64,000 bases of DNA from an uncultured Eubacteriales bacterium (GTDB taxonomy: Bacteria; Acidobacteriota; Aminicenantia; Aminicenantales; Saccharicenantaceae). The translations under genes were made by a program, and so were the position numbers. Where the stretch lies: positions 1,513 to 65,512 of the forward strand of contig CAYREO010000016.1 of NCBI GenBank assembly GCA_964423315.1. Reading direction: 5' to 3'. Shown here piece after piece: positions 11,806 through 27,230 of the stretch (positions within the stretch are counted from its first letter, which is position 1; each line of letters starts with the position of its first letter). The notes below the pieces were generated by a model that made no database searches, was not told the origin of the DNA, and saw only the letters and a list, made by a program, of their open reading frames with translations.

Positions 11806-11819
11806 GTCCGCAGCCCCCG

Positions 11820-12608
11820 TCAAAGGGGAATCCGTTCGGCGAAGAACTCCTTGAGGATCTCCCGGAGGGGGTCGGTCCCGGCCGGCGCGAATCCCAATGG
11901 ATTGTGGCGCCGCCAACCCTCGGCATAGGCGAATCGCCCGGACATCCGGCCGACCTCTCTCGTCATTTCCTCCATGGCCGAGAGATAAGAACCGAGCTTC
12001 TGGCTCCGGTCGAGCCAGTCCTGCTGGCTGGCGTGACGGGAGAGCATCGCAGTTTTCCTGTCCATGACCCCCCCGATGTCGATAAAATAATCAGGAAGGA
12101 CAGGACGGTCCATCATGTCTCTCAGGCCATAGGGAAGAGCATGGTAAAGGACGATCTCGTCGAGGAACGGCCCTTGGGGCGGATCGGTGACGAAGTTCAC
12201 CATCCCTCGGACGAAAGCGGCGGTGACCGTGACGCGGGCTGCGTTCATGTGGTCTTCCATGTAATCCTCGAGAGATAGCGTCAGGACCATTCGGGGCCTG
12301 ACCTCCCGGATCCGAGCGGCCATCCTCCGAACGAGGCCCGGCGAATAGAAAACATCCAGGTCGTCGACGAGGCTTTCGTGGTAAACCGCTCCCAGGATCG
12401 AAGCCGATTCCTGGGCCTCCTGGCGGCGGATGCGGACGATGGACTCCCGGTCATGGACCTTGGTCCCGCAGCTCCCGTTGGCGATGTTCATGATGTGAAT
12501 CTCGCATCCCCGGTCATGGAGCCGACAGAGTGTCCCGCCCATCATGAATTCGATATCGTCCGGGTGGCAACCGACAGCAAAGACTCTCAATGCATCTCCA
12601 CATCGCAA
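11820..12608 (-). CDS. PIG-L/LmbE-family N-acetylglucosaminyl deacetylase
   Basis: [17 protein letters not shown] (HPDDxE zinc motif) with LmbE-like fold signatures. Overlaps the upstream NagB-like gene by 22 bp. Confidence 0.8.
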
Positions 12609-13516
12609 GAGCCGATGCCAGGCCGGAAATAATTGAACTGGACTTCGGGATGATCGGCCAGGAGAGACATAGGAACGGAGGAATCCGGGAGCCGCTTGGA
12701 GATCATGAACGCCGTCAGTCGGATGCCGAAGGGATTATCGTGGTTCCCGTAATGCCAGATCGAGACCTTGTCGGATTTCCAGGTCTCGACCGGCCCGACC
12801 GTGACCGCCCGGGTCGGGATCTTGCTGACAACTCCTCCGCCGGATGTCCGGGCATTCTGAATGAGGGTGACAGGGTGGAGGTCAACAACCCGCGCCTTTA
12901 ACTTGCGGTATTCCGCGGGAGACGGCGGCTCTTCGAGGAAGCAGCCATCTCTCTTCACGGGGTCGTTGAAGGCCCAGTGCTTGATCTCGCCCTGCCCTCC
13001 TTGCATGATCGCGCATCGGGCCTGGTCGAAGCTCTTTGAATATTCTTCCAGGCTCTCGATGCCGGGGAAGTGGAGGTTCTCGGGAGGAGGGGCCAGCTTC
13101 GGATCGATCCGGTCGAAGCAAAGCTCCATGTCGGCCCGGGCGAAACTCAGGGGGTGGCTGCGTCCGACCTCCCGGTCGCCGATGACCCACTCGTCCATAC
13201 CCCAGAAGTGCGCGTGACGAAGATCGAGCCCCAGGGCGTTGACGAGCATCGCCACCAGAGGCAGCTGCTCGGTCGGCCCGATGGGGCCACAGACCCCCGC
13301 CGGATGCGAGGGAGTCGCTTGGCGCCATGCCTCGATATATTCGAGGGCTTCGGCCATATAGAAAGCCTCCCGAGTGTCATAAATCCGGATCGTAAAGCCC
13401 GGCCGGGACAGCTGCTCGATGTCCCGCACGGTCAGTCGCATGGCGTCCTCGAGGATCTTGTCGTCCAAAGTCGTATAATCCCACCAGCCCGGCGCCAAAG
13501 CGCTCATTTGTCTCAT
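12587..13516 (-). CDS. Glucosamine/galactosamine-6-phosphate deaminase-like (NagB/6-phosphogluconolactonase superfamily) protein
   Basis: HFWGMDEWV resembles the NagB active-site block (nmDEYvG). [13 protein letters not shown] and [10 protein letters not shown] blocks also match. Start chosen at MRQMS (ATG at 13516), preceded by GGAGAA RBS. Confidence 0.5.
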
Positions 13517-13611
13517 GATGTTCTCCTTTCCTCGGTCATTTCCGGTTCCTGAGAGGGGCCCCGCTCGCTTTACGGCCACTCTCAAAACAGCTAAGATGGG
13601 ATGGTTGTCCC

Positions 13612-14274
13612 ATGCACTATACTAATAAGACCAGCTCGCTCCATGTCCGCTACGGAGCCGACCCGCCTTCGATCTCCGATCCGGGGGCGTGGCGCGCCCC
13701 ATCCGATGCCGTCATCGAGCGCTATCCCTGGGCACCAGACGGCTACACGCCCCGCGTTGAGGTTCGCATCTATCGGTCCGAGAATTTCCTGTCGCTTCAT
13801 TTCAAAGCGTACGAACGGGTCATCCGGGCCCGCTGCACCTCGTTCCAAGATCCGGTCTATGAAGACAGCTGCGTGGAGTTCTTTTTCGATCCCTTCCCGG
13901 ACAGGGGGATCGGCTATGTCAATATCGAGGCCAACGCTCTCGGCACCATGCTCATCGGGCTCGGCCCTGAACGGTCGGGGCGCCGGCCTTTGTCGCGAGA
14001 TGAGATCGCCGGTTTCGAGGTCGCGTCCTCGGTGTCGGCCCCCCTGGAGGGCGAACACGGGAGCGACGCCTGGTGGGTTTCCTACCGGATCCCCGCCGCG
14101 TTCTTCGAGCGCCTTTACGGCGAGAGGATTCGGTCCGGGATCACCGGCCGCGGCAATTTCTATAAGTGCGGGGACGCCGCCAGCCCTCCCCACTATGGGT
14201 GTTGGGCACCGATTCGCCATCCCTATCCCGATTTCCATTTGCCCCGCTTCTTCGGCCTCCTCACTTTCGAGTGA
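13612..14274 (+). CDS. CBM9-like (carbohydrate-binding family 9 / DOMON-like) domain protein, no obvious signal peptide
   Basis: [11 protein letters not shown] and [27 protein letters not shown] resemble the CBM9_1 consensus (LYvaf.v.D, D.vE.FidP). Paralogous to 53041..53811 and to the N-terminus of 57504..59633. Confidence 0.55.
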
Positions 14275-14424
14275 CCTGTTCTCCGTCTTTTCCCCCCGGG
14301 TCCCGGAGGTCCCGGAACATCTGCGTCAGCTCCCTCAGACCCCGGACGACGATCAGCACCGACAGGGCGGTGAAAGCGACCAGACTAAAGACGACGAGAC
14401 CTGTCCAGCCGGCGACCCATGCGG

Positions 14425-15891
14425 TCATAACGATACCCCCTTCAGGCGGGGTCGGACGGCCTCGTGGAGGATCGATCCCAAGACCATGCCCGCTAGGGCT
14501 AGGACGAAACTCCCCCAACCCAACAAGGACGCGTTGGGCGAGCCGGGTATGAAATAGACGAGAGGCGGGACAGCTCCCAAAGTGAACGCCGCGTAAGCCC
14601 CGCCGGACCGAGCCTTCTTCCAGTACAGCCCCAGGGCCACGGCAACGAGGGTGCCGGGCACAAAGAGCATGATGGTCATATTGAGATAGAAATAAAGATA
14701 GCCCTCGATCCTGTGGAACAGGGACCACCAAATCAGGAAAAGCATCAGGGCCGTCAGGCAGACCCGGCTGACGACGAGCTGGGACTTTGAACTCATCTCG
14801 CGGCCGGTGAATTGCCGGACGACGCTGCCGATCAGATCCTGTGAAATGACCGAGCTCCAGGAGAGGAGATAGCTGGCATAGGTCGACATCGAAGCCGCCA
14901 GAAGGGCGCCCAGGAGCAGGCCCAGCCATCCGTGGGGCGTAATCCGGGCCAACATGGTCGGCAGGGCGGTCAACGGGTCCTCGACTGGGCCGAGGACGGC
15001 CAGGGCCACAACACCCCAGAAGATCGGCAGAACGGCCCGCGACAAGAACATAAAACTCGACCAGGTGAAGATCTTCCGTCCCGTTCGGCTGTCCTTGGCG
15101 CTGAATATGCGCATGGCAACGACCTGCCAGCTGGTCAGCACGGCCGTCCAGAGAAGGATCTGCCAGACGATGAATCCAAGCCCGAACTCCCCTTTGAGAA
15201 GCGAGGGCGTGAATGGATTCAGGCCCTTGGGTCCGAGTGTGGACTCCACGGCGTCAATGATCCGGGGCAACCCGATCTTGAAGAGGCCGAACAGGGTGAT
15301 GGCGATCATGCTCAGGCTGAGCAGGACGTACTGGATATAATTGGTGACGATGACCGAGACCATGCCTCCGACAAGGGTGTAGATGAGGACCACGGTCAGG
15401 AGGACGGTCATCGTCAGGAGCAGATGGTCCTCCGAGATCCCGGTGACGATGTTGATGAACCGGGCCTCGACCCCCGGGAAGACTCCGAAATTCAGGACGC
15501 CGCCGATGGCCATCAAGAGCCCGGCGTAGAACCGCACTCCGCGTCCGAACTTACGGTCGAAGAACTCCGGAAGCGTCCGGATCTTCATGTCGAGCAGAGG
15601 CTTCAGGATGAATCCTGTCCGGCCGATGAACAAGAAGACGGCGAACGGGGCCAGGCCGACGATCAGGGCCGCGAAACCGGCGTTGTAGCCCAGCTCCGCA
15701 AAGTACATATAGGTGATCATCCCGATCTCGGTGCACATCAGCGAGAGCAGACCGAGATGGAAGCCCATCGACCGGCCGGCCACGAGGTAGTCGTCGATGC
15801 CCTTGACGTACTTCTTGACGACGAAACCGGCGTAGAAGACGCCTCCGACATAGAGGACGACGAACAGTCCGTCAAGAAGACTGAGGTTCAT
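14425..15891 (-). CDS. Sodium:solute symporter family (SSF) transporter
   Basis: About 13 TM segments. SSF blocks DYLVAGRSMG, GYNAGFAALIVGLAPF, MLARITPHGWLGLLLGALLAASMSTYASYLLSWSSV. Start set at MNLSLLDG (ATG 15891), which overlaps the DegT stop (ATGA). Confidence 0.8.
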   Translation of the reverse strand: MNLSLLDGLFVVLYVGGVFYAGFVVKKYVKGIDDYLVAGRSMGFHLGLLSLMCTEIGMITYMYFAELGYNAGFAALIVGLAPFAVFLFIGRTGFILKPLLDMKIRTLPEFFDRKFGRGVRFYAGLLMAIGGVLNFGVFPGVEARFINIVTGISEDHLLLTMTVLLTVVLIYTLVGGMVSVIVTNYIQYVLLSLSMIAITLFGLFKIGLPRIIDAVESTLGPKGLNPFTPSLLKGEFGLGFIVWQILLWTAVLTSWQVVAMRIFSAKDSRTGRKIFTWSSFMFLSRAVLPIFWGVVALAVLGPVEDPLTALPTMLARITPHGWLGLLLGALLAASMSTYASYLLSWSSVISQDLIGSVVRQFTGREMSSKSQLVVSRVCLTALMLFLIWWSLFHRIEGYLYFYLNMTIMLFVPGTLVAVALGLYWKKARSGGAYAAFTLGAVPPLVYFIPGSPNASLLGWGSFVLALAGMVLGSILHEAVRPRLKGVSL

Positions 15892-17162
15892 GTCCTGCGG
15901 GCGAAAGCCCCCCCCACCTTCCGAAAGGCCTCGATCATCATCCGGACATGCTTCTCCTCGTAAACTGGATGGGTGAAGAAGGAGATCGTCCGGTCCGTCA
16001 GCCAGTGGGCCGTCGGGCAAGAGACCGTCGAGTAGTCGATCATCCGGGCCGAAGGGTCCCGGAAGGGGTAATTAGCCCTGCCGAAGCCCATAGGCTTCAA
16101 ATACGCGGCCTCCTTGTACATCTCGGGCCAGAGGACGGTATAGGCGGGGACGCCCTCGGCATTGATGGCCGCCACGAACTCCTTGGTCGAGACCGAAAGG
16201 CGGTCCGTGTCGAGGACAAAGGGGCACCACCAGAAGGCGTTCTTTCTCTCTTCGGAGTCCGGCGGGATGTGCAGGACCAGCGGGTGGTCCTTGAGAGCTT
16301 CGATCAGCTGCCGGCCGTTGCGACGGCGGTTGGGCAGGTTCCACGAGTCGAAGCGGGCCAGCTCGGCCAGCCCAATCGCCGATTGGACCTCCGTCATCCG
16401 GTAGTTGAAGCCGACCTGGGAATGGATGTACATCAGCTTGGATTCCAGATCGAGGAGGTTCATCCGTTTCTTGACATCATAGCCATGGTCCCGGAACGAC
16501 CGGCAGCGCCAGGCCAGATCCTCGTCGTCGGTGATGATGGCCCCGCCTTCCCCTCCGGTCGTGAAATGCTTGCTCTGACAGAAGCTGAAGCACCCCACAT
16601 CACCGATCGTCCCCACCTTCTTCCCTTTGTACTCCCCGCCGGGGGCCTGGGCGCAGTCTTCGATGACGAACAGGCCGCGGCGGCGGGCGATGTCCATGAT
16701 GGGGTCCATATCGGCCACGATCCCGTAAAGATGAACGACGATGATGGCCCGGGTCCGGTCGGTTATGCGCTCCTCCACGGACTTCGGCGAGATGACATGG
16801 TCGTAACCCGTGTCGGCGAACACCGGCAGGGCCCCGGCCTGGAGGATGCAGAAGCTCGAGGCGATGAACGAGTAGGACGGGCAGATGACCTCATCCCCGG
16901 GTCCGATGCCCAGAGAGGCGACCGCCGTGTGGAGGGCCGCGGTCCCGTTCGACGTGGAGATGCCGAACTTGGCCCCGTTGTATTCCGCCCAGGCCTTCTC
17001 GAATTCCATGCCCAAGGGCCCCGTCCAGTAGTTCACGCGCCCGGAGCGGAGGACCTCCTGGGTTTTCCGGATGCCATCCTCGGACAGGCTGGGCCACATG
17101 GGGAACGGCTCGCGGGCGATCCGCTCGCCGCCGTTGAGGGCCAATTCAATTTTCATGCTCAC
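15888..17162 (-). CDS. DegT/DnrJ/EryC1/StrS-family PLP-dependent sugar aminotransferase
   Basis: FSFCQSKHFTTGGEGGAIITDD (Lys-PLP block), YNGAKFGISTSNGTAALHTAV and RAIIVVHLYG are diagnostic of the DegT family. Confidence 0.9.
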   Translation of the reverse strand: MSMKIELALNGGERIAREPFPMWPSLSEDGIRKTQEVLRSGRVNYWTGPLGMEFEKAWAEYNGAKFGISTSNGTAALHTAVASLGIGPGDEVICPSYSFIASSFCILQAGALPVFADTGYDHVISPKSVEERITDRTRAIIVVHLYGIVADMDPIMDIARRRGLFVIEDCAQAPGGEYKGKKVGTIGDVGCFSFCQSKHFTTGGEGGAIITDDEDLAWRCRSFRDHGYDVKKRMNLLDLESKLMYIHSQVGFNYRMTEVQSAIGLAELARFDSWNLPNRRRNGRQLIEALKDHPLVLHIPPDSEERKNAFWWCPFVLDTDRLSVSTKEFVAAINAEGVPAYTVLWPEMYKEAAYLKPMGFGRANYPFRDPSARMIDYSTVSCPTAHWLTDRTISFFTHPVYEEKHVRMMIEAFRKVGGAFARRT

Positions 17163-18247
17163 GCTCCTTCAGGGATAGGGATTTTCGCGCCACCCGTCCG
17201 GGCCGAGGCATACGCGGCCAAGACGAGACGCAGATTGTGGACGGCCTCGCGGCCGTCTCTGCGGTCACCGCCAAGGATGGACCGGGCGTGGCCAGCGATG
17301 ATATGGCGGTAAATGTTGTCGACCTCGTCCAGCCGGACGATCGTCGCGGCGTGACCGTCATCCAGCTCGAGGTCCAGGGCGACAGGCTCCCCGGCGTGCC
17401 CGGAGAGTTGGAAGAGGGTCCCCCGCGCCCGGAGGGTTCCCTTTTCGCCGTAGATCTCATAACCGAGGTTCCTCAAAGTACCGGCCAGCCCTCCGCGCGG
17501 CTCGGCAAAGGAGACCCGGATGGTGCCCTCAAGGCTGCGCGTCTCGAAGCGGATCGACGCGCCGTCCTCGACGCGGGTGGCCAGGGTCTTCGGCGTAAAG
17601 GCCGCCCGCACCGCTCGGATCGTTTCGCCGATCAGGAATTCCGCCATGTACAGGCAATGGCTGCCAACATCGCCGATGGGACCGCCGAGTTCTTCGGGAC
17701 GATCGCATCTCCAAGTGCGAGCTTCCTCGGGCGTTGCACCGTATAGGAACTCCATGTGCAGGCAGATATCATTGATCCTTCCCAGAGCTCCGCTTGCGAC
17801 CATCTCCCGGGCCCTGCGGTTGTAGGCGTTGGCCGTCATCATGTGATCGACGGCCAGGGAAAGCGACCTTTTTTCGGCGACTGAGACGAGCTCTTCGGCG
17901 TCCTCCAGCGAGGTCGCCGCCGGCTTCTCGACGAGGACGTGTTTGCCCGCCTCCATGGCCCGCATTCCCAACGAATAGTGCGAGGAGTTCGGAGTGGCGA
18001 TGAATACGGCGTCGACGGCCGGGTCCTCGAAGATCTCCTCGGCCGTATCCCGCCAAGGGATCCCCCACCTTTCGGCTGCTTGTCTCCGCCCTGGATCAAC
18101 ATCCGTGACGGCCGCGAGCTCGGCCTCGGGAAGGAGGGGGAAGCGAGCCGTGTCCAATGCAAATCCCTCCCGGGCCAGCCGGTTCTCGGCGATCCCCCCG
18201 AATCCGATGAGGGCGTAACGGATCTTTTCCATAGACTTTCCCTTCAC
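17159..18247 (-). CDS. Gfo/Idh/MocA-family NAD(P)-dependent oxidoreductase
   Basis: N-terminal Rossmann IRYALIGFGGIAENR and VDAVFIATPNSSHYSLGMRAMEAGKHVLVEKP consensus. Confidence 0.85.
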   Translation of the reverse strand: MKGKSMEKIRYALIGFGGIAENRLAREGFALDTARFPLLPEAELAAVTDVDPGRRQAAERWGIPWRDTAEEIFEDPAVDAVFIATPNSSHYSLGMRAMEAGKHVLVEKPAATSLEDAEELVSVAEKRSLSLAVDHMMTANAYNRRAREMVASGALGRINDICLHMEFLYGATPEEARTWRCDRPEELGGPIGDVGSHCLYMAEFLIGETIRAVRAAFTPKTLATRVEDGASIRFETRSLEGTIRVSFAEPRGGLAGTLRNLGYEIYGEKGTLRARGTLFQLSGHAGEPVALDLELDDGHAATIVRLDEVDNIYRHIIAGHARSILGGDRRDGREAVHNLRLVLAAYASARTGGAKIPIPEGA

Positions 18248-19461
18248 CCGCCCTCCCTCCTGACAGAAGTGAGGCCGTCCTCGGCGCCTATCCAGATCCG
18301 CGACCGCTCATCCCACCGCGCATCGGCCTTCTCCCAGGGAAGTTCGGCGACAGGAAGCTCCTCGGCATCCTTGAGAACGGCGTCCCAGCCGCCGACCCCG
18401 CTCGTGGCGTCCAGGGCGGTCAGGTTCTGGCGCCCTGCGCAGGACGCAAGGCGGGCGGCGTCCTCCGGGTCGAGCCCGCGAAGCATGGCGGCCAGGAACC
18501 CGCCGATGCTGGTATCCCCCGCCCCGGTCGCGGAGAGGATGGTCTCGATGGCAAAGGGCGGCGCCCAGATCTCCCGATGGTCCCAGGAGCCGGCTCGGGC
18601 CGGCGTCCGGGCCTCGAGAGTGCCCGACGAGGACAGCCCACCCGTTCTAAGATAGAGGCCGCGGGCGCCGCACTTCAGAAGGACGGCCCCGCATCCCATA
18701 GCCAGAAAGTCCCGGGCGATCGAGCGGTGGTCGGCAAATGACAGGGAATCGGTGAAGCTCGGGTGGTCGCGCTTGCGTCGAAGCGTCCTCTCCGGATCAA
18801 GGAAATACAGAGCCTCTTCAAGGCTGGGGGTGAAGATGTCGACATAGGGCAGAACCGAAGCGAGGACGTCACGCCACGGCACGCGCCCCGATTCGCTGTC
18901 GGGATCGGGCAGGGATGTGTCGAGCGACGTCACAACGCCCAGACCGCGCACCCTCCGGAAGACGGCCGCCAGCTCCCGCCCGGCGCCACGGAACAGGGCC
19001 CGCATCAGAGGCGGATATCCGAAATGGAACGCCCGGCAGCCCGCCACAAGCCCGTAGTCTAGGCTTTCCGAGGAGAAAGTGTCGTTGCAGCCCGGGTAAT
19101 GGAGGATCATCCGATCGATGCCCGGAAAAGCCAGGATAATGGAATAGGAGCTTCCCATCCGGGACGTAACCTTGACCCCTCCCGTTTCCCCGTACTTTTG
19201 GAGCAACCGGACGGTAATCTCCCCGAAGCCGTCGTCACCGACCTGGGACATGAACAGGACCTTCATCCCCAGCTTTTTGAGGACGATCCCGGTGTTGGAG
19301 ACGGCCCCCCCCGTGCTGAAGGCGGCCGGTCCGACGTTCAGAAGCTTGCCCGGGGCCAGCAAAATGGAAAGGTCCTGAGATCCCTTGGGGGGAATCTCCG
19401 GGGTGAGATCGAGACAGAGGAGCCCGGCCGCCGCCACATCCCAACGAAAGTCTTCGGTCAT
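18244..19461 (-). CDS. PfkB-family carbohydrate kinase
   Basis: PfkB motifs GGAVSNTGIVLKKLG and ATGAGDTSIGGFLAAML. Start set at MTEDFRWDV (ATG 19461), giving an 8-bp overlap with the upstream gene. Confidence 0.7.
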   Translation of the reverse strand: MTEDFRWDVAAAGLLCLDLTPEIPPKGSQDLSILLAPGKLLNVGPAAFSTGGAVSNTGIVLKKLGMKVLFMSQVGDDGFGEITVRLLQKYGETGGVKVTSRMGSSYSIILAFPGIDRMILHYPGCNDTFSSESLDYGLVAGCRAFHFGYPPLMRALFRGAGRELAAVFRRVRGLGVVTSLDTSLPDPDSESGRVPWRDVLASVLPYVDIFTPSLEEALYFLDPERTLRRKRDHPSFTDSLSFADHRSIARDFLAMGCGAVLLKCGARGLYLRTGGLSSSGTLEARTPARAGSWDHREIWAPPFAIETILSATGAGDTSIGGFLAAMLRGLDPEDAARLASCAGRQNLTALDATSGVGGWDAVLKDAEELPVAELPWEKADARWDERSRIWIGAEDGLTSVRREGG

Positions 19462-19465
19462 CGAT

Positions 19466-20689
19466 CTAATCTCCCGCGGTCTTCCGAACGGACCGGCCGG
19501 CCTCGAGCCGGCGGAAATGGACCCGGACCGCGGCCATGATCTTCGCATCGACGGGGTCTCGTTCGGAAAGCGCGCAGACGTCCTCAAGGATATGTTCGAT
19601 CCCTAGGGGAAGCACGGAGTTAAGGAACTCCTCATCTCCCTCGTACAGCCGGCCGTCTGCGTCCGGTACATCGAAGAAACACGCCGCCGCCGCTCCTTCG
19701 GCCGTCTGGAGCGGCTCGACGCCCTGGGCCAGCTGGAAACGCATAGCACCGATCAGCCGGTCATCCCGGGCCAGCTTCCGGCGTATATCCCTGCCAACGC
19801 GGTGGATCGTATCGCCCAGGTGGATGTTCCCGAAACGCTTGAGAAGATCCTCGATATGGGCCTCCATTGCCGTCCCATCGAACTCGCCCGGATAAGCGCG
19901 GACCAGCGCCTGTCCAGACTCCCGCATCGCCTGCCGAACTCTCCGGCGTAAATCGGAGTCCCTCATGGCTTGCCAGGTAAAGACATGCCCCCGTCTCTCG
20001 ACCGCCGACATATAGGCGGTCATCGCGTGCCCCAGGTTGTGAACGAAAGACTTCCTCTCCACGTAGGCCCGCATGTTGTCCCGGGGCTCGAGGCCGGGGA
20101 CGTGCGGAACGCCGGCCTTAAACCCCTTGCGATCGACGATGAGGGAGTTGTAGGCCTCGGCGTAAATGAGGAGCGGGTCCTGGCGCCTTTGCTCGTCCGG
20201 CATGATGGGCACCATCTTGCCGATGCTGGTCTCCACGAGGCCGGGCATCGCTTCGGGCGGGAAATCGGGGGGCAGGGCCGTTGTCAGCCGGGAGCGGAGG
20301 AATCCGGCCCCGTCGAGAATATTCTCGCAAATGATTATATCGACGGGAGGCCGCCCCGCATGATGCCGCCTCAGGATCCCGCGAGCGAGCTGAGGGACGA
20401 GCGCTTCAAGGGCCCCCTTGCCCACGGCAGTCCCGATGACATCCGCCAAAACGATCTCCCCCGCTATCGCCTCAGGGTCCAGGGCGCTGACAGCCCGAAC
20501 ATTCTGGATGATGAGCCGCTCGCTTTTCTCATCCCGGATCTCGACCGTGTATTCCCGCTTTTCGTTGAGGGCCGAAACCAGGACGGGGTCGATATCGACG
20601 AAGATGACTTCGTAACCGGCGCGAGCGAAAAGCTGCCCGATGAACGAACGCCCGATGTTTCCGGCCCCGAATTGTACGAGTTTCTTCAT
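19466..20689 (-). CDS. Mannitol dehydrogenase family protein (mannitol-1-phosphate 5-dehydrogenase-like)
   Basis: N-terminus MKKLVQFGAGNIGRSFIGQLF matches the MtlD Rossmann motif (MKALHFGAGNIGRGFIG). Confidence 0.75.
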   Translation of the reverse strand: MKKLVQFGAGNIGRSFIGQLFARAGYEVIFVDIDPVLVSALNEKREYTVEIRDEKSERLIIQNVRAVSALDPEAIAGEIVLADVIGTAVGKGALEALVPQLARGILRRHHAGRPPVDIIICENILDGAGFLRSRLTTALPPDFPPEAMPGLVETSIGKMVPIMPDEQRRQDPLLIYAEAYNSLIVDRKGFKAGVPHVPGLEPRDNMRAYVERKSFVHNLGHAMTAYMSAVERRGHVFTWQAMRDSDLRRRVRQAMRESGQALVRAYPGEFDGTAMEAHIEDLLKRFGNIHLGDTIHRVGRDIRRKLARDDRLIGAMRFQLAQGVEPLQTAEGAAAACFFDVPDADGRLYEGDEEFLNSVLPLGIEHILEDVCALSERDPVDAKIMAAVRVHFRRLEAGRSVRKTAGD

Positions 20690-21918
20690 CGTTGGCCCGT
20701 TTCGTCTCCTTCCAGGAGGCCCTTCTCGTCCTCAGCGCTCCAGGAGCCAACAGAGAAGAGCTGCCGGCGAACTCCCGGATAGATCAGGCCTTTGCCAAAG
20801 AACTCCTGGGCCCGCACGGACAGTATGAGGTCCCGCGCCGCGTCCAGCCCCCCGACCCTTCGGATGTAGGGCTCGGCGGAGAACTGTCCCTCCGCCAGGA
20901 GGGTCATGACAGCGCGGACATCGGACGGATCGCCCCCTGAAGACCCGACCATGGAAATGCCGTCGTAATGGACGCGCCGGGTGTCCACCCGGATTTCGCT
21001 GGCCCCCGCCGGCGTCCCGCCGAAAAAGTGGGCAACGCCGCCCTTGGACAGATAGTCCAGGCTCTTCTCCTGGACGGCGGCGATACCCAGGGCGACGATG
21101 CAGTCATCGACTCCCCTGCCGCCCGAGAGGGCTCGGATGGCTCCCTCGAGGTCTGAGGGAACGGTCAGGACGAGCTCGACGCCTCGCTCGCGGCTTCGCG
21201 GGACGAGGATGTCAGCTGCGGCCCGGCGGCGGTCCTCGATGGGCTCGGAGAGGATGACCGCCCGGGGTCCGTAGGTCATGGCCATGTCGGCCAGCAGGAT
21301 GCCCATCGAACCGGCGCCCAGAATGAGCGTGACGCCCCCGCGAAGCGGGCCGAGGCTGGCCCGGCGGGGTCCGAGAGGCCCTTCCTTGGTGATGTGGGCG
21401 ATGCGGTTGAGCGCCGAGTGGACGCAGGACAAGGGCTCGCTGAAGGCGGCAGCGAAGAACGGGACCTCGGCGGGCTCATAAGGGATGAGGCAATCCGCTT
21501 GGATGACCTCTTCCGTGATGAGAACGTATTCGGCAAACAGCCCGCCGAGGGTGTAGCCGATGGCGACCTTCTCGACCTGATCGACCTGTTCATACCGTTC
21601 ACGGTGGTTGATCGGGGAGATATCGACGGCGGGCTGGACGGCGAACGATGCGTCCTCACGAAAGCGGCTGCGGAGGTCCTCTCCTACCAGGACGGTGGTG
21701 ACGCACCCTTCATGCCCGATAACGACCGGCCAGCGCTCGACGTCCCATCCGTAGAGAAGGGGATGCTCTCGCCCGTTCTCGATCAGCTTGCCGTCGGACG
21801 AGCAGGCAAAGACAGCGTCCACGCGGGCCAATATCTGGCCGGGCCCAGGGCGAGGTACAGGCACGCGCTGGAGGGCCAGGTTCTCGAATCCCCGTCCCGA
21901 AAGGACCAGCGCGTCCAT
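20686..21918 (-). CDS. Zinc-dependent alcohol/polyol dehydrogenase (MDR family, sorbitol-DH-like)
   Basis: MDALVLSGRGFENLALQRVPVPRPGPGQILARV is the typical MDR N-terminus. LILGAGSMGILLADMA is the Rossmann motif. Start uncertain; alternatives are ATG at 21972 or 22053. Confidence 0.75.
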   Translation of the reverse strand: MDALVLSGRGFENLALQRVPVPRPGPGQILARVDAVFACSSDGKLIENGREHPLLYGWDVERWPVVIGHEGCVTTVLVGEDLRSRFREDASFAVQPAVDISPINHRERYEQVDQVEKVAIGYTLGGLFAEYVLITEEVIQADCLIPYEPAEVPFFAAAFSEPLSCVHSALNRIAHITKEGPLGPRRASLGPLRGGVTLILGAGSMGILLADMAMTYGPRAVILSEPIEDRRRAAADILVPRSRERGVELVLTVPSDLEGAIRALSGGRGVDDCIVALGIAAVQEKSLDYLSKGGVAHFFGGTPAGASEIRVDTRRVHYDGISMVGSSGGDPSDVRAVMTLLAEGQFSAEPYIRRVGGLDAARDLILSVRAQEFFGKGLIYPGVRRQLFSVGSWSAEDEKGLLEGDETGQR

Positions 21919-22004
21919 GTCTGCGGGGATCCGAGGGCCGGGGGAGCCCCATGTTCTCACAGGCCTGATCATGGCTCTCTTTGTGCCCCTCCTTCCTTTG
22001 GAAT

Positions 22005-23246
22005 TCAAAGAGCCTCTATAGCCGCCGCCGTCGCCCCGCCACCTCCGAAGCAAATGGCAACGATGCCAAAACGGCGGCGATGGGCCTTTAGGACGTGAAC
22101 GAGCGTGACTAGGAGCCGGGCGCCGGCTGATCCGAGAGGATGGCCCAACGCGATGGCCCCGCCATGGACGTTGATCTCCGCCCCCGGGAAATTCTCTTCG
22201 AAAACGGGGAGCTGGATCCCGAAGGCCTCATTGATCTCCATGATGGTGAAATCGTCGGCGGCCGGGCCTCGAGACGACAAAGCAGAGGTCAGGAGGCGGA
22301 CAGCTTCGACGGGCGAATCGATGAAATCGGCCGCGGGCCGGTCAATTCTGCTGAACCCCAGAATTCTGGCCATGGGCACGAGACCGGAGGCGGCAGCGAC
22401 CCCTGGGCCGGCCAGAACGACGGCTGCTGCGTTGTCGGCGGGGGCCGAGGAATTGTAGGCCGAGGCGATGTCCTGCTCGCTCTCCGCCCGCATCCGCTCG
22501 AGCTCCTCGTCGGCCGCGAGTTCGTCCCGGATGACGTCCCCGACCGGAGCCAGTTCGGCATCGAACAGGCCTTCTTCCCTGGCCCTGCGGGCCCGCTCGT
22601 GACTCTCGGCGGCTTTCCGGTTGACGGCCTCGATCGTGATCCCGCGGCGGCGGGCGAAGGCCAGGGCGTACTCCCGCATGAACTTTCTCTCGACCGGCCA
22701 AAAAAGGCCGTCGTAGGCCACGGCATCGACGATCGCCGAGAGGGAGAGCTGATCCTCGGCGTTCTCCGCGAACTGCCAGCGGTAGGCCCCCGCTTTCTTC
22801 ATCCGGAGATAGCCCCCCTGCTGATATCCTTTCCCTTGGCGGAAGAACCTCGGGTCGAGGAGATAGGGAGCGTTGGAGCGCGATTCCATTCCTCCGGCCA
22901 CGGCCAGCCGGGCCCTTCCCAAAAGCAGCGCGTCGGCGGAGATCATGACAGCCTCCAAGGAAGAACCGCAGACGTTCTCGATCGTGCGGGAGGGGACCGA
23001 CGGCGAAATGCCGGCGGCCAGGGCCGCTTGTTTGGACGGCGCCTCACCCAGCCCAGAAGGCACGACGCAGCCCATCGTGACCAATTCGACACGGTCGGGG
23101 GAAAGGCCGGCTTTCCTCAGGGCGGCCTCAATGGCTCTCCCACCCAGTTCGGGAGCAGAAGAGGAGGCCAGACAGCCCCGGAACCGGCCAATAGGGGTCC
23201 TGGCCGCGGCCAAGATGTGGACCTCGCTGTCGCAGAGGGCGATCAC
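22005..23246 (-). CDS. Thiolase-family protein (acetyl-CoA C-acyltransferase-like)
   Basis: ILAAARTPIGRFRG N-terminal thiolase block. NVHGGAIALGHPLGSAGARLLVTLV and ICFGGGGATAAAIE are C-terminal thiolase signatures. Confidence 0.85.
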   Translation of the reverse strand: MIALCDSEVHILAAARTPIGRFRGCLASSSAPELGGRAIEAALRKAGLSPDRVELVTMGCVVPSGLGEAPSKQAALAAGISPSVPSRTIENVCGSSLEAVMISADALLLGRARLAVAGGMESRSNAPYLLDPRFFRQGKGYQQGGYLRMKKAGAYRWQFAENAEDQLSLSAIVDAVAYDGLFWPVERKFMREYALAFARRRGITIEAVNRKAAESHERARRAREEGLFDAELAPVGDVIRDELAADEELERMRAESEQDIASAYNSSAPADNAAAVVLAGPGVAAASGLVPMARILGFSRIDRPAADFIDSPVEAVRLLTSALSSRGPAADDFTIMEINEAFGIQLPVFEENFPGAEINVHGGAIALGHPLGSAGARLLVTLVHVLKAHRRRFGIVAICFGGGGATAAAIEAL

Positions 23247-25534
23247 GCCGGGCCTCCCAGGAGGCGTCGGACGGCTTGACTGATGCGCTCGGGGGACGGG
23301 ATATTCTCGTTCTCAAGGGGGGCCGCCATGGGCGGGGGAACGGAATGGGCCGAAACGATCTCGACCGGAGCTTTGAGGAACGGAAAAGCGTTGCGCTGGA
23401 CCTCAAAGGCGACGTGCTGGGCGAAGCTGCATGTCAGGGGGGATTGGACGACCACCACGCAGCGCCCTGTCTTCTTCACGGAGTCAACTACAGTCGCGGA
23501 ATCCATCGGGATCAGGCTCCGCAGGTCGATGACCTCGGCCTCGACCCCATCGCGGGCCTTGAGCGTTTCGGCGGCGGCCAGGGTGTTTTTCAGAAGGTTC
23601 AGATAGCTGACCAGAGTCACGTCCCCTCCGGCCCGAAGGACGGCCGCGCTACCGAATGGGAGAGTTACGTCTTCGTCCGGTTCCGGGACCTGACCGAGGT
23701 CAGCGTAGAGCATCTGATGCTCGATGAAGACCACGGGGTTGTCGTCGCGAATGGCGGTTTTCAAGAGGCCCTTGGCGTCCCGAGGGGCGAAGGGCGCAAC
23801 GACCTTGAGCCCAGGAAAATGGGCCATGATGGCCTCGAGGCTTTGGGAATGTTGTCCGGCATAGCCTTTCCCACCGCCTACGGTCGTCCGGAGAACAAGC
23901 GGGATACGGGCTTTACCTCCGAACATGTAGCGGGTCTTGGCGACTTGATTGGCCAGCTGGTCCAATGCCAGGGGGATGAAATCGATGTACATGATCTCGA
24001 TGACGGGGCGGAGGCCGGTCATGGCCGCCCCGCAGGCCGTTCCGACGATGGCGGCTTCCGAGATAGGAGCATTGAAGACCCGGCGGCGACCGAAGGTATC
24101 CAGGAGGTCCATGGTCACGCCGAAAGCGCCTCCGTAATCCGCCACATCCTCGCCGTAGAGAACGACCCGCCGGTCGCGCTCCATCTCCTCGGCCAGGGCC
24201 TCCCAGATCGCATGGCGGAAAAGGATCCGCCCACCGGACATCCGTTTGATGCGCCGGACAGGTTTGAGGAGTTGGGTAGTCCTCCAACAAGGTTCGGGGG
24301 TGGCAGGAGGTTCGTCAACCCATAGCCCTTCAGCGATCTCCTCGACCCTCGGTTCCGGAGAGAGTGCGGCCCGGACAGCCGCTTCCCTCGTCCTACGCTT
24401 CATTTCGAGCCGGGCGAGCTCGGCCTGTTCCCGGCTGAGCACACCGGCCGCATCGAGCTGCGCCTCGAAACGGGCGATGGGATCCCAATCCTTCCAGGCT
24501 TTCTCCTCCTCGGCAGACCGATAGCTCGTCCGTTTATCGCTCAGAGAATGGCCCAGGTACCGGTAGGTCATGCATTCCAGCAGAACGGGCCCTTCGCCTC
24601 GGCGGCACTTGACGGCCGCCCGGGCGACCGCGTCCCGCACAGCAAGGACGTCCATGCCGTTGACGACCTCTGCGTTCATGTTCCGATGATCATACGCGGC
24701 CCCGCGCCTGGCGAGGTGCCGGATTCCGGTGACTTCCAGGCATTGCTGCCCGGTCATGCCGTACTGATTGTTCTCGATCAGGAAGATAACCGGCAGGCCC
24801 TTTTCGAATTGCGCTTGAGCAGCGAAATTCATCGCTTCGTGGGCTATGCCGTTGTTGGTTGCCCCGTCGCCGACGAAGGTGATCACGATGCGGTCGGTCC
24901 CCAGAAGATGCTGGGCCAGCGCCGCCCCCGTCCCAATGGCGAAGCTCCCGCCGACAATCGCGTTCGCCCCCAGATGATGGGCCTCGAAGTCGGCGATGTG
25001 CATTCCGCCGCCCCGGCCCCGGCAATATCCGTCCTCCTTGCCGAACAGCTCGCAGATCGTCCGGTAGAGGTGACGGTCCAAGGCGCGTTCTTGAAGATCC
25101 CCCTCGCTCTCGTCCAGCCTGGCCGGAGAGGGGCCGGCGAAGGCCTCCAGCTCCGAGCGCGACATTCTGAATATCCGGACGGCCCCCTTGGCGATGGAGT
25201 GACCGTGCCCTCGATGGGTGGAGGTGATGTAATCATCGGCCCGGATCGCCGAGATGGCCCCGGCGGCCGTCGCTTCCTGGCCGATCGACAGATGGGTCGC
25301 GCCGATGAACGGGAAGCCTTCAATGGGAGCGAAAGTCCCCTGTTTCATCTCAACGATCATCTCTTCGAGGGCCCGGTTCATGATCATGAGACGATGAAGA
25401 CGTAGCGCCTCGGCAGAATCGATGGACCGGGCCTTCAGTTCCGCTTCGAGGTTGAGGCGATAAGCATAAAGAGGGATAGGCGGGATCTCGATTTGGCCGG
25501 CGTTGAAATCGGGGAGAATGTCACAGTCTTTCAT
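23243..25534 (-). CDS. TPP-dependent 2-oxoacid/acetoin dehydrogenase E1 component, fused alpha+beta subunits
   Basis: Alpha-like N-half with YITSTHRGHGHSIAKG (TPP-binding YRGHG) and GDGATNNG. Beta-like C-half with LYGEDVADYGGAFGVTMDL and RPVIEIMYIDF. Single ORF of 763 aa. Confidence 0.75.
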   Translation of the reverse strand: MKDCDILPDFNAGQIEIPPIPLYAYRLNLEAELKARSIDSAEALRLHRLMIMNRALEEMIVEMKQGTFAPIEGFPFIGATHLSIGQEATAAGAISAIRADDYITSTHRGHGHSIAKGAVRIFRMSRSELEAFAGPSPARLDESEGDLQERALDRHLYRTICELFGKEDGYCRGRGGGMHIADFEAHHLGANAIVGGSFAIGTGAALAQHLLGTDRIVITFVGDGATNNGIAHEAMNFAAQAQFEKGLPVIFLIENNQYGMTGQQCLEVTGIRHLARRGAAYDHRNMNAEVVNGMDVLAVRDAVARAAVKCRRGEGPVLLECMTYRYLGHSLSDKRTSYRSAEEEKAWKDWDPIARFEAQLDAAGVLSREQAELARLEMKRRTREAAVRAALSPEPRVEEIAEGLWVDEPPATPEPCWRTTQLLKPVRRIKRMSGGRILFRHAIWEALAEEMERDRRVVLYGEDVADYGGAFGVTMDLLDTFGRRRVFNAPISEAAIVGTACGAAMTGLRPVIEIMYIDFIPLALDQLANQVAKTRYMFGGKARIPLVLRTTVGGGKGYAGQHSQSLEAIMAHFPGLKVVAPFAPRDAKGLLKTAIRDDNPVVFIEHQMLYADLGQVPEPDEDVTLPFGSAAVLRAGGDVTLVSYLNLLKNTLAAAETLKARDGVEAEVIDLRSLIPMDSATVVDSVKKTGRCVVVVQSPLTCSFAQHVAFEVQRNAFPFLKAPVEIVSAHSVPPPMAAPLENENIPSPERISQAVRRLLGGPA

Positions 25535-25575
25535 ATTAGAGGGTCCGTCCCTTCAGCGTCAGGCAAAATTGGCAC

Positions 25576-25604
25576 TTGCATTTTAGGAGCATATATCATA
25601 TATC
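25576..25604 (+). promoter_or_regulatory. σ70-like promoter upstream of 25714 gene with ATATATCATATATCATAT motif
   Basis: TTGCAT (25576-25581), N17, TATATC (25599-25604). The direct repeat ATATCAT ATATCAT AT lies at 25591-25608. Confidence 0.4.
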
Positions 25605-25713
25605 ATATCTGGTAGGACGAATCAAGGCTAAAATAGCCCGGTCCGACGACGCGGCTGGACGCAAAATCCTGGCTATTGATAGGAACACATCAAAAAAATC
25701 AGAAGGAGATGCC

Positions 25714-27204
25714 ATGAGAAAGAACAGATATGTAATCGCTACGCTAGCCATTCTCCTGTCGTCGGCGGCGGCCCCTGCCTCTAACGAAAAGGGGGAGATC
25801 CTTGCGGCCATGAAAAAAGCGACCCGCTTCATGGTCGATCATGCGGGCGAGCGTGGAGGGTATTTCTGGCATTACAGTTCGGATCTCACCGAACGTTGGG
25901 GAGAGATACCGGTCCGGGCCTCTCAAGTCTGGGTGCAGCCGCCCGGGACTCCGGCCGTGGGGTTGCTCTTGATGGACGCCTACGAAGCGACCGGGGACCC
26001 CGAGTACTTGCGGGACGCCGAGGAGGTCGGCCGGATGCTTGCCTTCGGCCAGCTCCCGTTCGGAGGGTGGCATTATTTCATCGACTTCGATCCCCCGGGC
26101 ATCCCGTATTACTATGAAACCGTCGCCTCCCAATGCTGGGGCTACGAAGAGTTCTATCACTACCACTACAATGGCACGTTCGACGATGAGGTCCATACGG
26201 CGCCGACCCGCCTTCTGATGCGCCTTTATCTGGCCACGCTCGATCCGCGCTACAAAACCGCTCTTGACAAGGCGTTGCAGTTCGTTCTGGACGCCCAGTT
26301 TCCAAACGGTTCCTGGCCGCAACGTTTTCCCCTCCAGCACGACTACAGCTCGTTATACACCTTCAACGATGATGTCATCAGCGGTAACATCGATCTTCTT
26401 TGGGAAGCCTTTGAGAACTTGGGAAACCCGGCTTACAAGGCAGCGGCTCTCAGAGGAATGGATTTTATCATTCTCTCCCAGATGCCTCCGCCTCAAGCCG
26501 GCTGGGGTCTTCAGTACGGGCCGGACATGAAGCCGGCCAAGGGACGCAATTTTGAGCCGGCCGGGATCACCCCTTCCGAAACGATCAACAACATCCGGTC
26601 TCTGCAGAAATATTACAAAATCACCGGGGACCGAAAATATCTCCGGGGTATCCCGGACGCCCTGCGCTGGCTCGAGGACTCGGTCATCAATAGTGACCCC
26701 GATCGGCGGCACGAAGGGATGGCCTACACCCACGCCTCGTTCTACGAGTTGGGAACGAACCGGCCGCTCTACGTCCACCGGAAGGCCACGAGGGCCGAGC
26801 TCGATCCCGAAGACCCGAGCAAGGGTTACTGGGTGGATTACGAGTTCGGGAACTTCCCCGGACATTACGGGATGATCGGTTTTTTCGACATTCCGTCAAT
26901 CCGCGCAGAATACGACCGGGTCAGCCGGCTCAGCCCCGAAGAAGCGCGGATCGAATACGAGGCGGGCAAAAACGCTCTGCCGGCCCCCCCCTCCCCGGAG
27001 GAGATCCGCAAGATCATCTCTGCCATGGACGGTCGCGGCGCCTGGGTCGAGACGACCTTCGTCCGATATTATCCGGACTTCCGGGACCGCGAGAAAGGCC
27101 GGACCATCCCGGGGATACAGACCAGGACTTACCTGAACAACATGCAGAAGCTGATCGCCCGGTTGCCGGCGGCCCAAGGGCCGCCTCCAGCCGGGAAAAA
27201 GTGA
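25714..27204 (+). CDS. Secreted α/α-toroid-like protein with QW-type repeats (prenyltransferase/squalene-cyclase-like repeat; possibly a PL10-type polysaccharide lyase fold)
   Basis: Start at MRKNRYVIATLAILLSSAAAPAS (signal peptide) with AGGAGA RBS. Repeated Q..[GN]G[SG]W blocks: GQLPFGGWHY, AQFPNGSWPQRF, PPPQAGWGLQYGP, ERGGYFWHY. Confidence 0.45.
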   Translation: MRKNRYVIATLAILLSSAAAPASNEKGEILAAMKKATRFMVDHAGERGGYFWHYSSDLTERWGEIPVRASQVWVQPPGTPAVGLLLMDAYEATGDPEYLRDAEEVGRMLAFGQLPFGGWHYFIDFDPPGIPYYYETVASQCWGYEEFYHYHYNGTFDDEVHTAPTRLLMRLYLATLDPRYKTALDKALQFVLDAQFPNGSWPQRFPLQHDYSSLYTFNDDVISGNIDLLWEAFENLGNPAYKAAALRGMDFIILSQMPPPQAGWGLQYGPDMKPAKGRNFEPAGITPSETINNIRSLQKYYKITGDRKYLRGIPDALRWLEDSVINSDPDRRHEGMAYTHASFYELGTNRPLYVHRKATRAELDPEDPSKGYWVDYEFGNFPGHYGMIGFFDIPSIRAEYDRVSRLSPEEARIEYEAGKNALPAPPSPEEIRKIISAMDGRGAWVETTFVRYYPDFRDREKGRTIPGIQTRTYLNNMQKLIARLPAAQGPPPAGKK

Positions 27205-27230
27205 GTCCGGGCCGCGGGGCCCGGATGCGA

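Follow-up and report, generated by a model that had tools for sequence, protein, structure and literature searches.

A fused acetoin-dehydrogenase-like E1 enzyme linked to a thiolase and sugar-type genes in a conserved operon of an uncultured bacterium

Why would a thiamine diphosphate (TPP)-dependent E1 enzyme and a thiolase be encoded together with sugar-type dehydrogenases, a sugar kinase, an aminotransferase and a symporter, and what could such a set of proteins achieve? The question is raised by eight consecutive minus-strand genes at positions 14425-25534 of a stretch of 64,000 nucleotides from an uncultured bacterium of the Aminicenantales (GenBank assembly GCA_964423315.1, contig CAYREO010000016.1, positions 1,513 to 65,512), which is called the window throughout. 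As presented here, the eight genes form a real, conserved operon, and we infer its function from the families to which its products belong: The operon may serve the uptake and breakdown of a sugar-like compound, with the E1 enzyme cleaving a sugar-derived acyloin in the style of acetoin dehydrogenase. We favor this explanation tentatively and regard it as possible, with somewhat less than an even chance of being correct.

All eight open reading frames (ORFs) were found where the initial annotation of the window had placed them, and Pfam bore out each of its domain assignments. They encode, in this order, the fused E1α-E1β protein (E1αβ), a thiolase, a zinc-dependent alcohol dehydrogenase-type protein (Zn-ADH), an MtlD-like oxidoreductase, a PfkB-family kinase, a Gfo/Idh/MocA oxidoreductase (Gfo), a DegT-type aminotransferase and a sodium:solute symporter (SSF). 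Their third-position GC content is 0.75-0.86 in a window of 62% GC, a bias that is typical for real genes. The junctions, as read off the sequence, are 4-bp overlaps or gaps of no more than 32 nt throughout. Overlaps of 4-8 bp between consecutive genes had been claimed; the packing is equally tight, but some junctions are not overlaps, and none of those in the window operon overlaps by 8 bp, whereas the related locus L169 has such an overlap between the MtlD and PfkB genes. Four base pairs are shared by E1 and the thiolase (GTGA), by Zn-ADH and MtlD (ATGA), and by DegT and SSF (ATGA at 15888-15891, an exact match to the annotation). For PfkB/Gfo and Gfo/DegT, there is a GTGA overlap or an alternative ATG located 11 nt and 2 nt downstream, respectively. 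Between the thiolase and Zn-ADH genes, we find either a TTGA overlap or, more likely, a start at ATG 21972 past a 32-nt spacer that bears a strong ribosome-binding site (GGAAGGAGG), and the MtlD and PfkB genes do not overlap but are separated by 4 nt (PfkB ATG 19461). The genes share one strand, have overlapping or nearly abutting codons and keep their order in relatives, i. e. they have the properties of a translationally coupled operon, and the packing suggests that all eight are read as one transcript. Terminator-like sites inside the operon occur at chance level (10 observed versus 8.4 expected), and a scan for promoters and terminators with the σ70 consensus was at chance level as well and is uninformative for this organism.

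The arrangement did not arise by chance, since order and overlaps recur in L169: This locus, with an E1 that is 80% identical, contains the identical eight genes in identical order with overlaps of 4, 4, 8, 4 and 4 bp. In both loci, the SSF gene is followed by a CBM9 gene, which is convergent in the window; at the other border, a divergent gene encodes a PL10-like pectate lyase. Gene contexts of further E1 homologs were taken from exact look-ups and from genome and metagenome scans and were mapped by BLAST; all 120 clusters listed are 57-100% identical and comprise proteins of about 755-765 aa. The sample of loci is partial and biased to the two scan motifs TSTHRGHGH and G(Y)AGQHSQ, which are conserved in the E1 clade, and the loci derived from the scans represent a lower bound. 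The operon is a composite of two modules. (i) Module A, the widely conserved core, comprises E1αβ, the thiolase, Zn-ADH (in part of the loci) and the MtlD-like protein, in many cases joined by a long PfkB, and is found in Aminicenantes, KSB1 and other metagenome-assembled genomes (MAGs). The four-gene core E1αβ-thiolase-Zn-ADH-MtlD is present in L003 (an Aminicenantales MAG), L085, L087, L088 (a KSB1 MAG) and L092, E1αβ-thiolase is retained in L170 and L179, and Spirochaetota (L005-L008, L091) as well as Armatimonadota (L010) have a version that is reduced to the pair E1αβ-MtlD. (ii) Module B, PfkB-Gfo-DegT-SSF, is specific to the lineage of the window. In locus L176, one strand carries PfkB-Gfo-DegT-SSF-x-PIG-L and the other carries thiolase and MtlD genes followed by those for 2-keto-3-deoxygluconate (KDG) kinase, 2-keto-3-deoxy-6-phosphogluconate (KDPG) aldolase and a class III aminotransferase, which indicates that PfkB-Gfo-DegT-SSF is a separable module. 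The initial annotation had proposed gene order as a check of its idea of a catabolic-looking, co-conserved operon. This idea is supported: All eight genes keep their order in L169 and the core does so across phyla, and the opposite outcome, genes that each group with housekeeping orthologs and are not co-conserved, is not what we observed, as neither E1 nor the thiolase is of a housekeeping type and the clusters are co-conserved.

The first gene (23243..25534) encodes a TPP enzyme of 763 aa in which the E1α and E1β parts are fused (Pfam E1_dh, Transket_pyr and Transketolase_C). It lies outside the canonical pyruvate dehydrogenases (PDH): The E1α part reaches 263 bits with the PDH E1α equivalog TIGR03182 (cut-off 393.85), the E1β part scores 351.7 with the equivalog NF008854 (cut-off 454), and the only E1 model that is passed is the E1β subfamily NF006667 (346.7 versus 321). 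Thus, the curated E1α and E1β equivalogs do not place the protein among the E1 components for pyruvate or branched-chain 2-oxoacids, and NCBIfam yields only weak matches to transketolase and DXS. An alignment to human E1α revealed that the TPP motif GDG...NN and the catalytic His of YRYLGHS are kept, as is the His of GQHSQ, which is invariant. In contrast to the human protein, the Tyr of YRxHG is replaced by His and the Phe of GFCHL by Ala, and about 40 residues are extra; this insertion (residues 119-158) is found only in the clade of proteins that are at least 49% identical to the window E1. The motif TSTHRGHGH is invariant also in E2-linked relatives and is present in the split E1α of Brevibacillus laterosporus (L172). 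Used as queries against other Bacilli, the E1α/β of the latter showed 49-72% identity to the E1 proteins of aco-type operons. They share 49% identity with their counterparts in L074 and L083, whose E1α-E1β-E2-E3 genes adjoin a σ54 activator, and 70-84% with those in L039 and L046, both of which are linked to SorC. Moreover, a fused plasmid homolog is annotated as acetoin:DCPIP (dichlorophenolindophenol) oxidoreductase (acoB). On these three grounds, i. e. the motif, the identities of the L172 proteins to those of aco-type operons and the annotation of the plasmid homolog, we assign the window E1 to the acetoin dehydrogenase (AcoA/AcoB) lineage, an assignment that is judged by motif and identity as NCBIfam has no curated AcoA model. 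Acetoin-dehydrogenase-like enzymes cleave α-hydroxyketones, and the family of the window E1 points to such an acetoin-type (acyloin) cleavage over the decarboxylation of a 2-oxoacid. The initial annotation had spoken of an atypical C-C cleavage step, and this is a fair description.

It had also been noted that the E1 comes without E2 and E3 partners, and this holds for the entire window: tblastn queries with E2, the E2 catalytic domain, the lipoyl domain, E3 and LplA found none in the 64 kb. The same queries found none in any locus with an E1 that is at least 56% identical, with the exception of an E2 catalytic domain in L010. In a rough neighbor-joining tree of E1, the basal clade members L093 and L097 keep a lipoyl-E2, L093 also E3, and L111, likewise basal, has a lipoyl and a catalytic domain. 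Among the derived members, E1 is accompanied by an E2 catalytic domain that lacks the lipoyl part (L010, L095, L096), by the thiolase, or by MtlD only, and the thiolase-linked loci fall into two sub-clades. As an observation in its own right, the E2 catalytic domain of L010 (12279-13016), L095 (12192-13055) and L096 lacks both the lipoyl and the E3-binding domain and follows directly after E1 or E1-MtlD; a lipoyl domain was not detectable elsewhere in these three loci.

The acetoin dehydrogenase system, with the E1 proteins AcoA and AcoB, the E2 protein AcoC, the E3 protein AcoL and the σ54 activator AcoR, is of the same E1 lineage, and its acoABCL-acoR arrangement is that of L074 and L083. 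Similarly, a GAF-σ54 activator flanks the KSB1 cluster, like AcoR in the aco system, and a zinc-dependent medium-chain dehydrogenase/reductase (MDR) belongs to the window cluster where aco clusters have a butanediol dehydrogenase. However, in the window E1 α and β are fused, an N-terminal segment is extra in addition to the insertion, and the thiolase occupies the slot of E2. Unlike a stand-alone acetoin operon, the E1 clusters are set among sugar-type genes (MtlD-like, PfkB, SSF, DeoR/SorC). Since neither a lipoyl-bearing E2 (AcoC) nor an E3 (AcoL) is encoded with it, we regard the window E1 as a putative acyloin-cleaving enzyme and not as part of an acetoin dehydrogenase complex.

The thiolase (22005..23246, 413 aa; Pfam Thiolase_N and Thiolase_C) overlaps the E1 stop codon with its start in L169 as in the window, and the called genes likewise overlap or abut in L087 and L170. 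The protein is a genuine member of its family as it passes the subfamily model TIGR01930 (274 versus 240.55) and contains all four catalytic motifs with the Cys, Asn, His and Cys residues (NVCGSS, NEAF, GHPLG and CFGGG, read from the translation), as expected for a Claisen enzyme that depends on CoA. In agreement with the initial annotation, it stands apart from the housekeeping types: It is far below every named equivalog (PhaA, BktB, FadA, PcaF; best PhaA, 241 versus 740) and forms a cluster-specific group with the thiolases of other clusters, to which it is 53-62% identical. Its best solved relatives in the PDB are acetoacetyl-CoA thiolases. The Zn-ADH (20686..21972 with the preferred start, about 428 aa; Pfam ADH_N and ADH_zinc_N) is a long, very divergent MDR protein of the polyol dehydrogenase type, as judged from its sequence: The best NCBIfam match is the scyllo-inosose 3-dehydrogenase IolM (68.7, cut-off 450), the PDB gave weak matches to threonine and sorbitol dehydrogenases, and the Zn-ADHs of other core clusters are 52-65% identical. 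The MtlD-like oxidoreductase (19466..20689, 407 aa; Pfam Mannitol_dh N and C) is of the short mannitol-1-phosphate dehydrogenase type. The best of nine MtlD equivalogs gave 261.1 and does not reach its cut-off of 356, but the fold family is clear from the match to the MtlD structure 3h2z (218 bits), and the protein resembles sugar-phosphate dehydrogenases. Its gene is the most constant neighbor in the E1 clade and adjoins E1αβ in Aminicenantes, KSB1, Spirochaetota and Armatimonadota.

Module B starts with a long PfkB-family sugar kinase (18244..19461, about 405 aa; Pfam PfkB) that reaches no equivalog, the top match being the IolC N-domain (49.5 versus 300); orthologs with 40-43% identity are encoded divergently beside E1αβ in L002, L092 and L154. 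For the Gfo oxidoreductase (17159..18247; Pfam GFO_IDH_MocA), the best NCBIfam matches are levoglucosan dehydrogenase (5.8e-24) and IolG (7e-24; 84.3 versus 355), far below the cut-off, and the best structures are 3q2i, which is labelled as a dehydrogenase and presumably is a WlbA-type UDP-sugar 3-dehydrogenase, and then 1,5-anhydrofructose reductase. Gfo is paired with DegT in L169, L176 and L178. The DegT/DnrJ/EryC1-type aminotransferase (15888..17156; Pfam, 303 bits) has the pyridoxal phosphate (PLP)-binding Lys in an SKH motif and reaches no NCBIfam equivalog; in the PDB, its similarity to perosamine synthase (204 bits) hardly differs from that to the (2-deoxy-)scyllo-inosose aminotransferases (186-193 bits), and NtdA is more distant (134.7 bits). 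As to the relatives of the window's organism, the DegT orthologs come mostly from Planctomycetes-Verrucomicrobia-Chlamydiae (PVC) phyla, across which they are 67-86% identical, and orthologs with 67-71% identity occur also in housekeeping contexts of other PVC bacteria, with or without Gfo. In L177 (ERZ21878193, a contig of 8.6 Mb), an ortholog with about 70% identity stands alone in a housekeeping neighborhood, and in L178 (the Lentisphaerae MAG GCA_001803225.1), an ortholog that is also about 70% identical is followed by Gfo and a weak ceramidase-like gene. These two contexts would fit a cell-envelope amino-sugar role of the ancestral DegT/Gfo pair, presumably like that of GnnA/GnnB. The operon ends with the SSF (14425..15891, 488 aa; Pfam SSF), whose solved relatives are, weakly, sugar transporters of the SGLT type; the SSF genes annotated by Pfam beside the core in L003 and L085 had no match to the window SSF in the BLAST map.

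The initial annotation had proposed that the operon degrades an amino sugar or aminocyclitol. This idea fits module B but not the operon as a whole, because Aminicenantes, KSB1 and others possess the conserved core of E1, thiolase and MtlD-like enzyme (and Zn-ADH) but no aminotransferase with it, so that the core is not specific to amino sugars, and the DegT/Gfo pair accompanies the core only in the lineage of the window (window, L169, L176). An amino compound would be at most one feedstock, in this lineage. The initial annotation had been reminded of the kanosamine/aminocyclitol pairs NtdA/NtdC and BtrS/BtrE. The adjacent Gfo and DegT, the latter with its PLP lysine, form a pair as do the sugar 3-dehydrogenases and aminotransferases NtdC/NtdA and WbpB/WbpE. 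In contrast to these, the window pair has a catabolic context with genes for a symporter and a kinase, and its match to NtdA is weaker than that to perosamine synthase or the inosose aminotransferases.

How could the two modules act together? We suggest that the proteins of module B, i. e. SSF, DegT, Gfo and PfkB, would import an amino- or keto-substituted sugar or cyclitol, remove or relocate the amino or keto group and phosphorylate the product. The MtlD-like enzyme, and Zn-ADH where it is present, would then oxidise hydroxyl groups of the polyol or ketose (phosphate) to yield an α-hydroxyketone (acyloin) or a vicinal diketone. On the fused E1, by virtue of its acetoin-dehydrogenase-type descent, TPP may attack the carbonyl so that the adjacent C-C bond is broken, and the products would be an aldehyde, either small or in the form of an aldose phosphate, and a two-carbon (C2) unit at the acyl level. 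The C2 unit might be converted to acetyl-CoA or acetoacetyl-CoA and handled by the thiolase. What is converted, by which chemistry and in which order is our proposal. Two known systems provide analogies. In the degradation of autoinducer-2, LsrK, LsrG and LsrF split a phosphorylated diketo-sugar with coenzyme A (CoA) to acetyl-CoA and triose phosphate, and the system has a SorC-family regulator and a sugar kinase; LsrF, however, has an aldolase fold and does not belong to the thiolase family, and the Lsr system is not known to include a TPP enzyme. Among the genes examined here, none was recognised as an lsr homolog. Phosphoketolase and sulfoacetaldehyde acetyltransferase form acetyl-TPP without lipoate, with phosphate rather than CoA as the acceptor. 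They could serve as a mechanistic model if E1 makes an acetyl-level intermediate non-oxidatively for a thiol acceptor, but they belong to other TPP-enzyme families and their kinship in sequence to E1 is limited to the TPP fold.

Several points weigh against an acyloin cleavage by E1. First, every one of the eight enzymes is below the NCBIfam equivalog cut-offs, and no substrate is assigned. Second, the cleavage of acetoin-type compounds to acyl-CoA normally requires lipoyl-E2 and E3, and as neither was found in the window or at the loci with an E1 of at least 56% identity, they are either encoded elsewhere or the chemistry differs. Third, a canonical thiolase has no obvious role after a C2 acyl unit except condensation. 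The formation of acyl-CoA without lipoyl-E2 and the role of the thiolase thereafter are the weak point of the proposal. Fourth, a related fused E1, that of L016, scores above the cut-off for PDH E1α (420.6 versus 393.85), and the wider family thus includes possible plain pyruvate users. Finally, the link to the polyol genes could be indirect, e. g. via redox balance or an end product, and the E1 tree is a rough neighbor-joining tree without support values.

An alternative that would solve the problem of the thiolase is a β-oxidation-like breakdown of a 2-keto-3-deoxy sugar acid. E1αβ would then be a true 2-oxoacid dehydrogenase E1 with E2 and E3 located elsewhere that converts KDG, KDPG or a similar compound to a 2-deoxy-aldonyl-CoA, one of the dehydrogenases would oxidise the 3-hydroxyl group, and the thiolase would split the resulting 3-ketoacyl-CoA to acetyl-CoA and a glyceryl-CoA-type product. 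No other scheme gives a canonical short-chain thiolase with all of its motifs intact its normal role. It also agrees with the neighboring genes: In L176, the thiolase and MtlD genes are directly followed on the same strand by the KDG kinase, KDPG aldolase and aminotransferase genes, the same trio is located near the window operon, and the conserved divergent neighbor encodes a PL10-type pectate lyase. An analogous end-game, with glyceryl-CoA and a C4 unit followed by a thiolase, is known for deoxyribonate (PMC6365646). The full E2 of basal E1-clade members, with E3 in L093, would be in line with this scheme. However, neither E2 nor E3 is found near any thiolase-linked E1, the E1 motif is shared with operons of the acetoin type rather than the 2-oxoacid type, the MtlD-like enzyme is akin to dehydrogenases for sugar phosphates and not for hydroxyacyl-CoA, and the Spirochaetota have the E1-MtlD pair without a thiolase. 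We consider this route unlikely.

We think it improbable to a similar degree that the operon serves the degradation of a cyclitol or aminocyclitol, a more specific form of the idea of the initial annotation. Here, scyllo-inosose would be produced by Gfo (IolG-like, from inositol) and by DegT (from scyllo-inosamine) and be further oxidised by Zn-ADH (IolM-like), and the ring would be opened either by the TPP enzyme acting on a cyclic acyloin or diketone, in a function like that of IolD, or by the thiolase, which would stand in for the hydrolase IolN and cleave thiolytically; the MtlD-like protein would be a keto-uronate or keto-gluconate reductase that feeds KDG kinase and KDPG aldolase. Several top matches have an inositol flavor (IolM for Zn-ADH, the IolC N-domain for PfkB, and IolG after levoglucosan dehydrogenase for Gfo), scyllo-inosose and 2-deoxy-scyllo-inosose aminotransferases are among the better solved relatives of DegT, the SSF is similar to SGLT-type transporters, and KdgK and Eda are adjacent. 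Yet all of these matches are far below the IolM, IolC and IolG cut-offs, and a scan of window proteins revealed no IolE, IolB, IolD, IolN, IolO or altronate/mannonate dehydratase, so that the set characteristic of an Iol pathway is lacking among those scanned. Most lineages with the core have neither Gfo nor DegT beside it, and DegT orthologs are also encoded in housekeeping contexts. The route is modelled on the myo-inositol pathway of Thermotoga maritima, which has acyloin and diketone intermediates that need cleavage (PMC5931981). This pathway (IolG, IolM, IolN and IolO, then tagaturonate reductase, KDG kinase and KDPG aldolase) and the window both combine Gfo-type and Zn-MDR dehydrogenases, a PfkB-family gene, KDG kinase and KDPG aldolase. 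In T. maritima, however, the cleavage is hydrolytic (IolN) and involves neither a TPP enzyme nor a thiolase, and no counterpart of the epimerase or dehydratase was found for the window operon. A reductase of the mannitol dehydrogenase family takes part in the T. maritima pathway.

Equally doubtful is an ordinary polyol operon with added end-product genes, in which no new cleavage of a sugar C-C bond takes place: The MtlD-like enzyme and Zn-ADH would turn hexitols such as mannitol and sorbitol, or ketose 1-phosphates, into fructose or fructose 6-phosphate with PfkB as the kinase, E1αβ would act on pyruvate (as a PDH E1 with remote E2/E3, a decarboxylase or an acetoin former), and the thiolase would start an electron sink of the butyrate or polyhydroxybutyrate (PHB) type. 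To combine PfkB with a Zn-MDR and a dehydrogenase for hexitol phosphates is a known logic, as with sorbose-1-phosphate reductase plus hexitol-phosphate dehydrogenase, the L016 E1 with its PDH-like E1α score is encoded amid polyol genes and at some distance from an E2, and the thiolase is nearest to acetoacetyl-CoA thiolases; but the window E1α is below the PDH cut-off and has the clade-specific insertion, no hbd, crt, bcd or PHB genes were seen in the annotated cluster flanks, and the strict, coupled adjacency of E1 and thiolase across phyla and in two sub-clades would be unusual for a mere end-product link. The most far-reaching possibility, and in our view a rather remote one, is that other enzymes have taken over from the lipoate machinery within the clusters of the thiolase-linked clade, with Zn-ADH in the place of lipoate and E3 (oxidising the acyloin to a vicinal diketone) and the thiolase in that of E2, so that the thiolase Cys or CoA would split the E1·TPP-diketone adduct to an aldehyde and an acyl-CoA without lipoate.

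No equivalog cut-off is reached and we found no description of such a cluster in the literature but analogies only; we therefore regard the operon as an uncharacterised variant. Its core, i. e. the fused acetoin-type E1, the thiolase and the MtlD-like enzyme with or without Zn-ADH and PfkB, is strongly conserved in poorly known and mostly uncultured lineages, namely Aminicenantes, KSB1, Armatimonadota, Spirochaetota and the relatives of the window's organism. If E1 indeed cleaves a sugar-derived acyloin, as we tentatively propose, the operon would represent a so far overlooked way in which carbohydrates are turned into acetyl-CoA in anaerobic sediments and digesters, as well as a natural case of an E1 that functions without E2 and E3. 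If lipoate were replaced, many uncultured anaerobes would possess a lipoate-independent, energy-conserving C-C cleavage of sugar-derived diketones. If, on the other hand, E1 merely uses pyruvate with a remote E2, the genes form an ordinary polyol operon. The question is experimentally approachable since a related, unannotated E1-E2-E3 class exists in cultured Brevibacillus, Rhizobium and Pleomorphomonas. The cultured bacteria with such aco-like operons are B. laterosporus (L172, NZ_CP011075.1), Rhizobium sp. N324 (L174, NZ_CP013635.1), Pleomorphomonas (L173, AP017627.1) and those of L039 and L046; the operons adjoin transporters for sugars of the phosphotransferase system or ATP-binding cassette (ABC) type, PfkB or FGGY kinases, a class II aldolase and SorC regulators, and their annotation is generic. 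Relatives of E1 are also present on 796 plasmid records, and no published function was found.

The intergenic region upstream of E1 has diverged between the window and L169 except for one well-conserved block at 25574-25627 on the minus strand, about 40-90 nt upstream of the E1 start. The block reads CCTTGATT-N9-AGATATGATATATGATATATGCT ... GCAAGT and includes a short GATATAT tandem repeat, and we consider it a candidate promoter or operator on the basis of this conservation. The σ70 consensus scan made no call there and no Rfam family matched it, as a search of 13500-27500 against Rfam gave no match at E <= 0.1.

On the other side of the operon, the window contains the genes for a KDG-kinase-like PfkB protein (8827-9870, plus strand), KDPG aldolase (9887-10525, plus), a class III aminotransferase (10522-11805, plus), a BshB1-like PIG-L deacetylase (11820-12608, minus) and a protein of 332 aa (12587-13585, minus) without any family match and with an insignificant likeness (E = 0.49) to glucosamine-6-phosphate isomerase/deaminase; the first four were assigned with Pfam and NCBIfam. 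The set co-travels with operon genes in L176 (8326-15263), which shows that the window genes at 8.8-13.6 kb share the functional neighborhood of the operon. In the E1 clade as a whole, the adjoining genes encode DeoR and SorC regulators, a Lyx_isomer cupin, DUF4432, phosphoglucose isomerase (PGI), RpiA, phosphomannose isomerase (PMI), SSF and ABC sugar-binding proteins. The most informative of the loci is L095. Its order is an aldehyde:ferredoxin oxidoreductase/iron-dependent alcohol dehydrogenase (Fe-ADH) fusion, E1αβ, the E2 catalytic domain, SorC and a phosphotransacetylase (PTA)/acetate kinase fusion, and this gene set is the one expected if the E1 reaction yields an aldehyde and acetyl-CoA. 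The two fusion proteins of this locus (7016-16236) have 958 aa and 718 aa, respectively.

Three candidates for a functional link were discarded. A small ORF between E1 and the thiolase (L002, 12375-12863; L179, 12346-13008) was taken into account as the missing lipoyl carrier, but it has a nuclease-like EIDLLA motif and looks inserted; the two copies are 77% identical and that of L002 adjoins a PemK/RHH (ribbon-helix-helix) toxin-antitoxin pair. The Rhizobium "NAD(P)H-dependent oxidoreductase" beside E1α is not homologous to the MtlD-like protein, and P0063, a homolog of 930 aa that might have been a Rosetta-stone fusion, carries an unrelated C-terminal extension and no partner enzyme. Genes of the URO-D (uroporphyrinogen-decarboxylase/methyltransferase-like) family recur at a distance of a few kb from E1 in three loci that are not related to each other (L002, 552-1688; L014, 3373-4581; L092, 3208-4353).

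Elsewhere in the window, four large ORFs of 1155, 688, 476 and 705 aa (27231-32761, minus; 32952-36496, plus) have good coding statistics and essentially no Pfam match, the sole one being a sub-threshold transglutaminase core in the 688-aa protein. At 2049-4175 (minus), a sulfatase with a C-terminal region of the N-sulfoglucosamine sulfohydrolase type is fused to a long tetratricopeptide repeat (TPR) domain, after which come the genes for a stand-alone TPR protein (4221-4925), a GntR/FCD regulator and a D-2-hydroxyacid dehydrogenase. A second sugar-type cluster at 41926-46677 (plus) encodes an M20 peptidase, a Zn-ADH, an Nramp-family transporter and a Gfo/Idh/MocA oxidoreductase, and a further PfkB kinase is encoded at 52103-53044.

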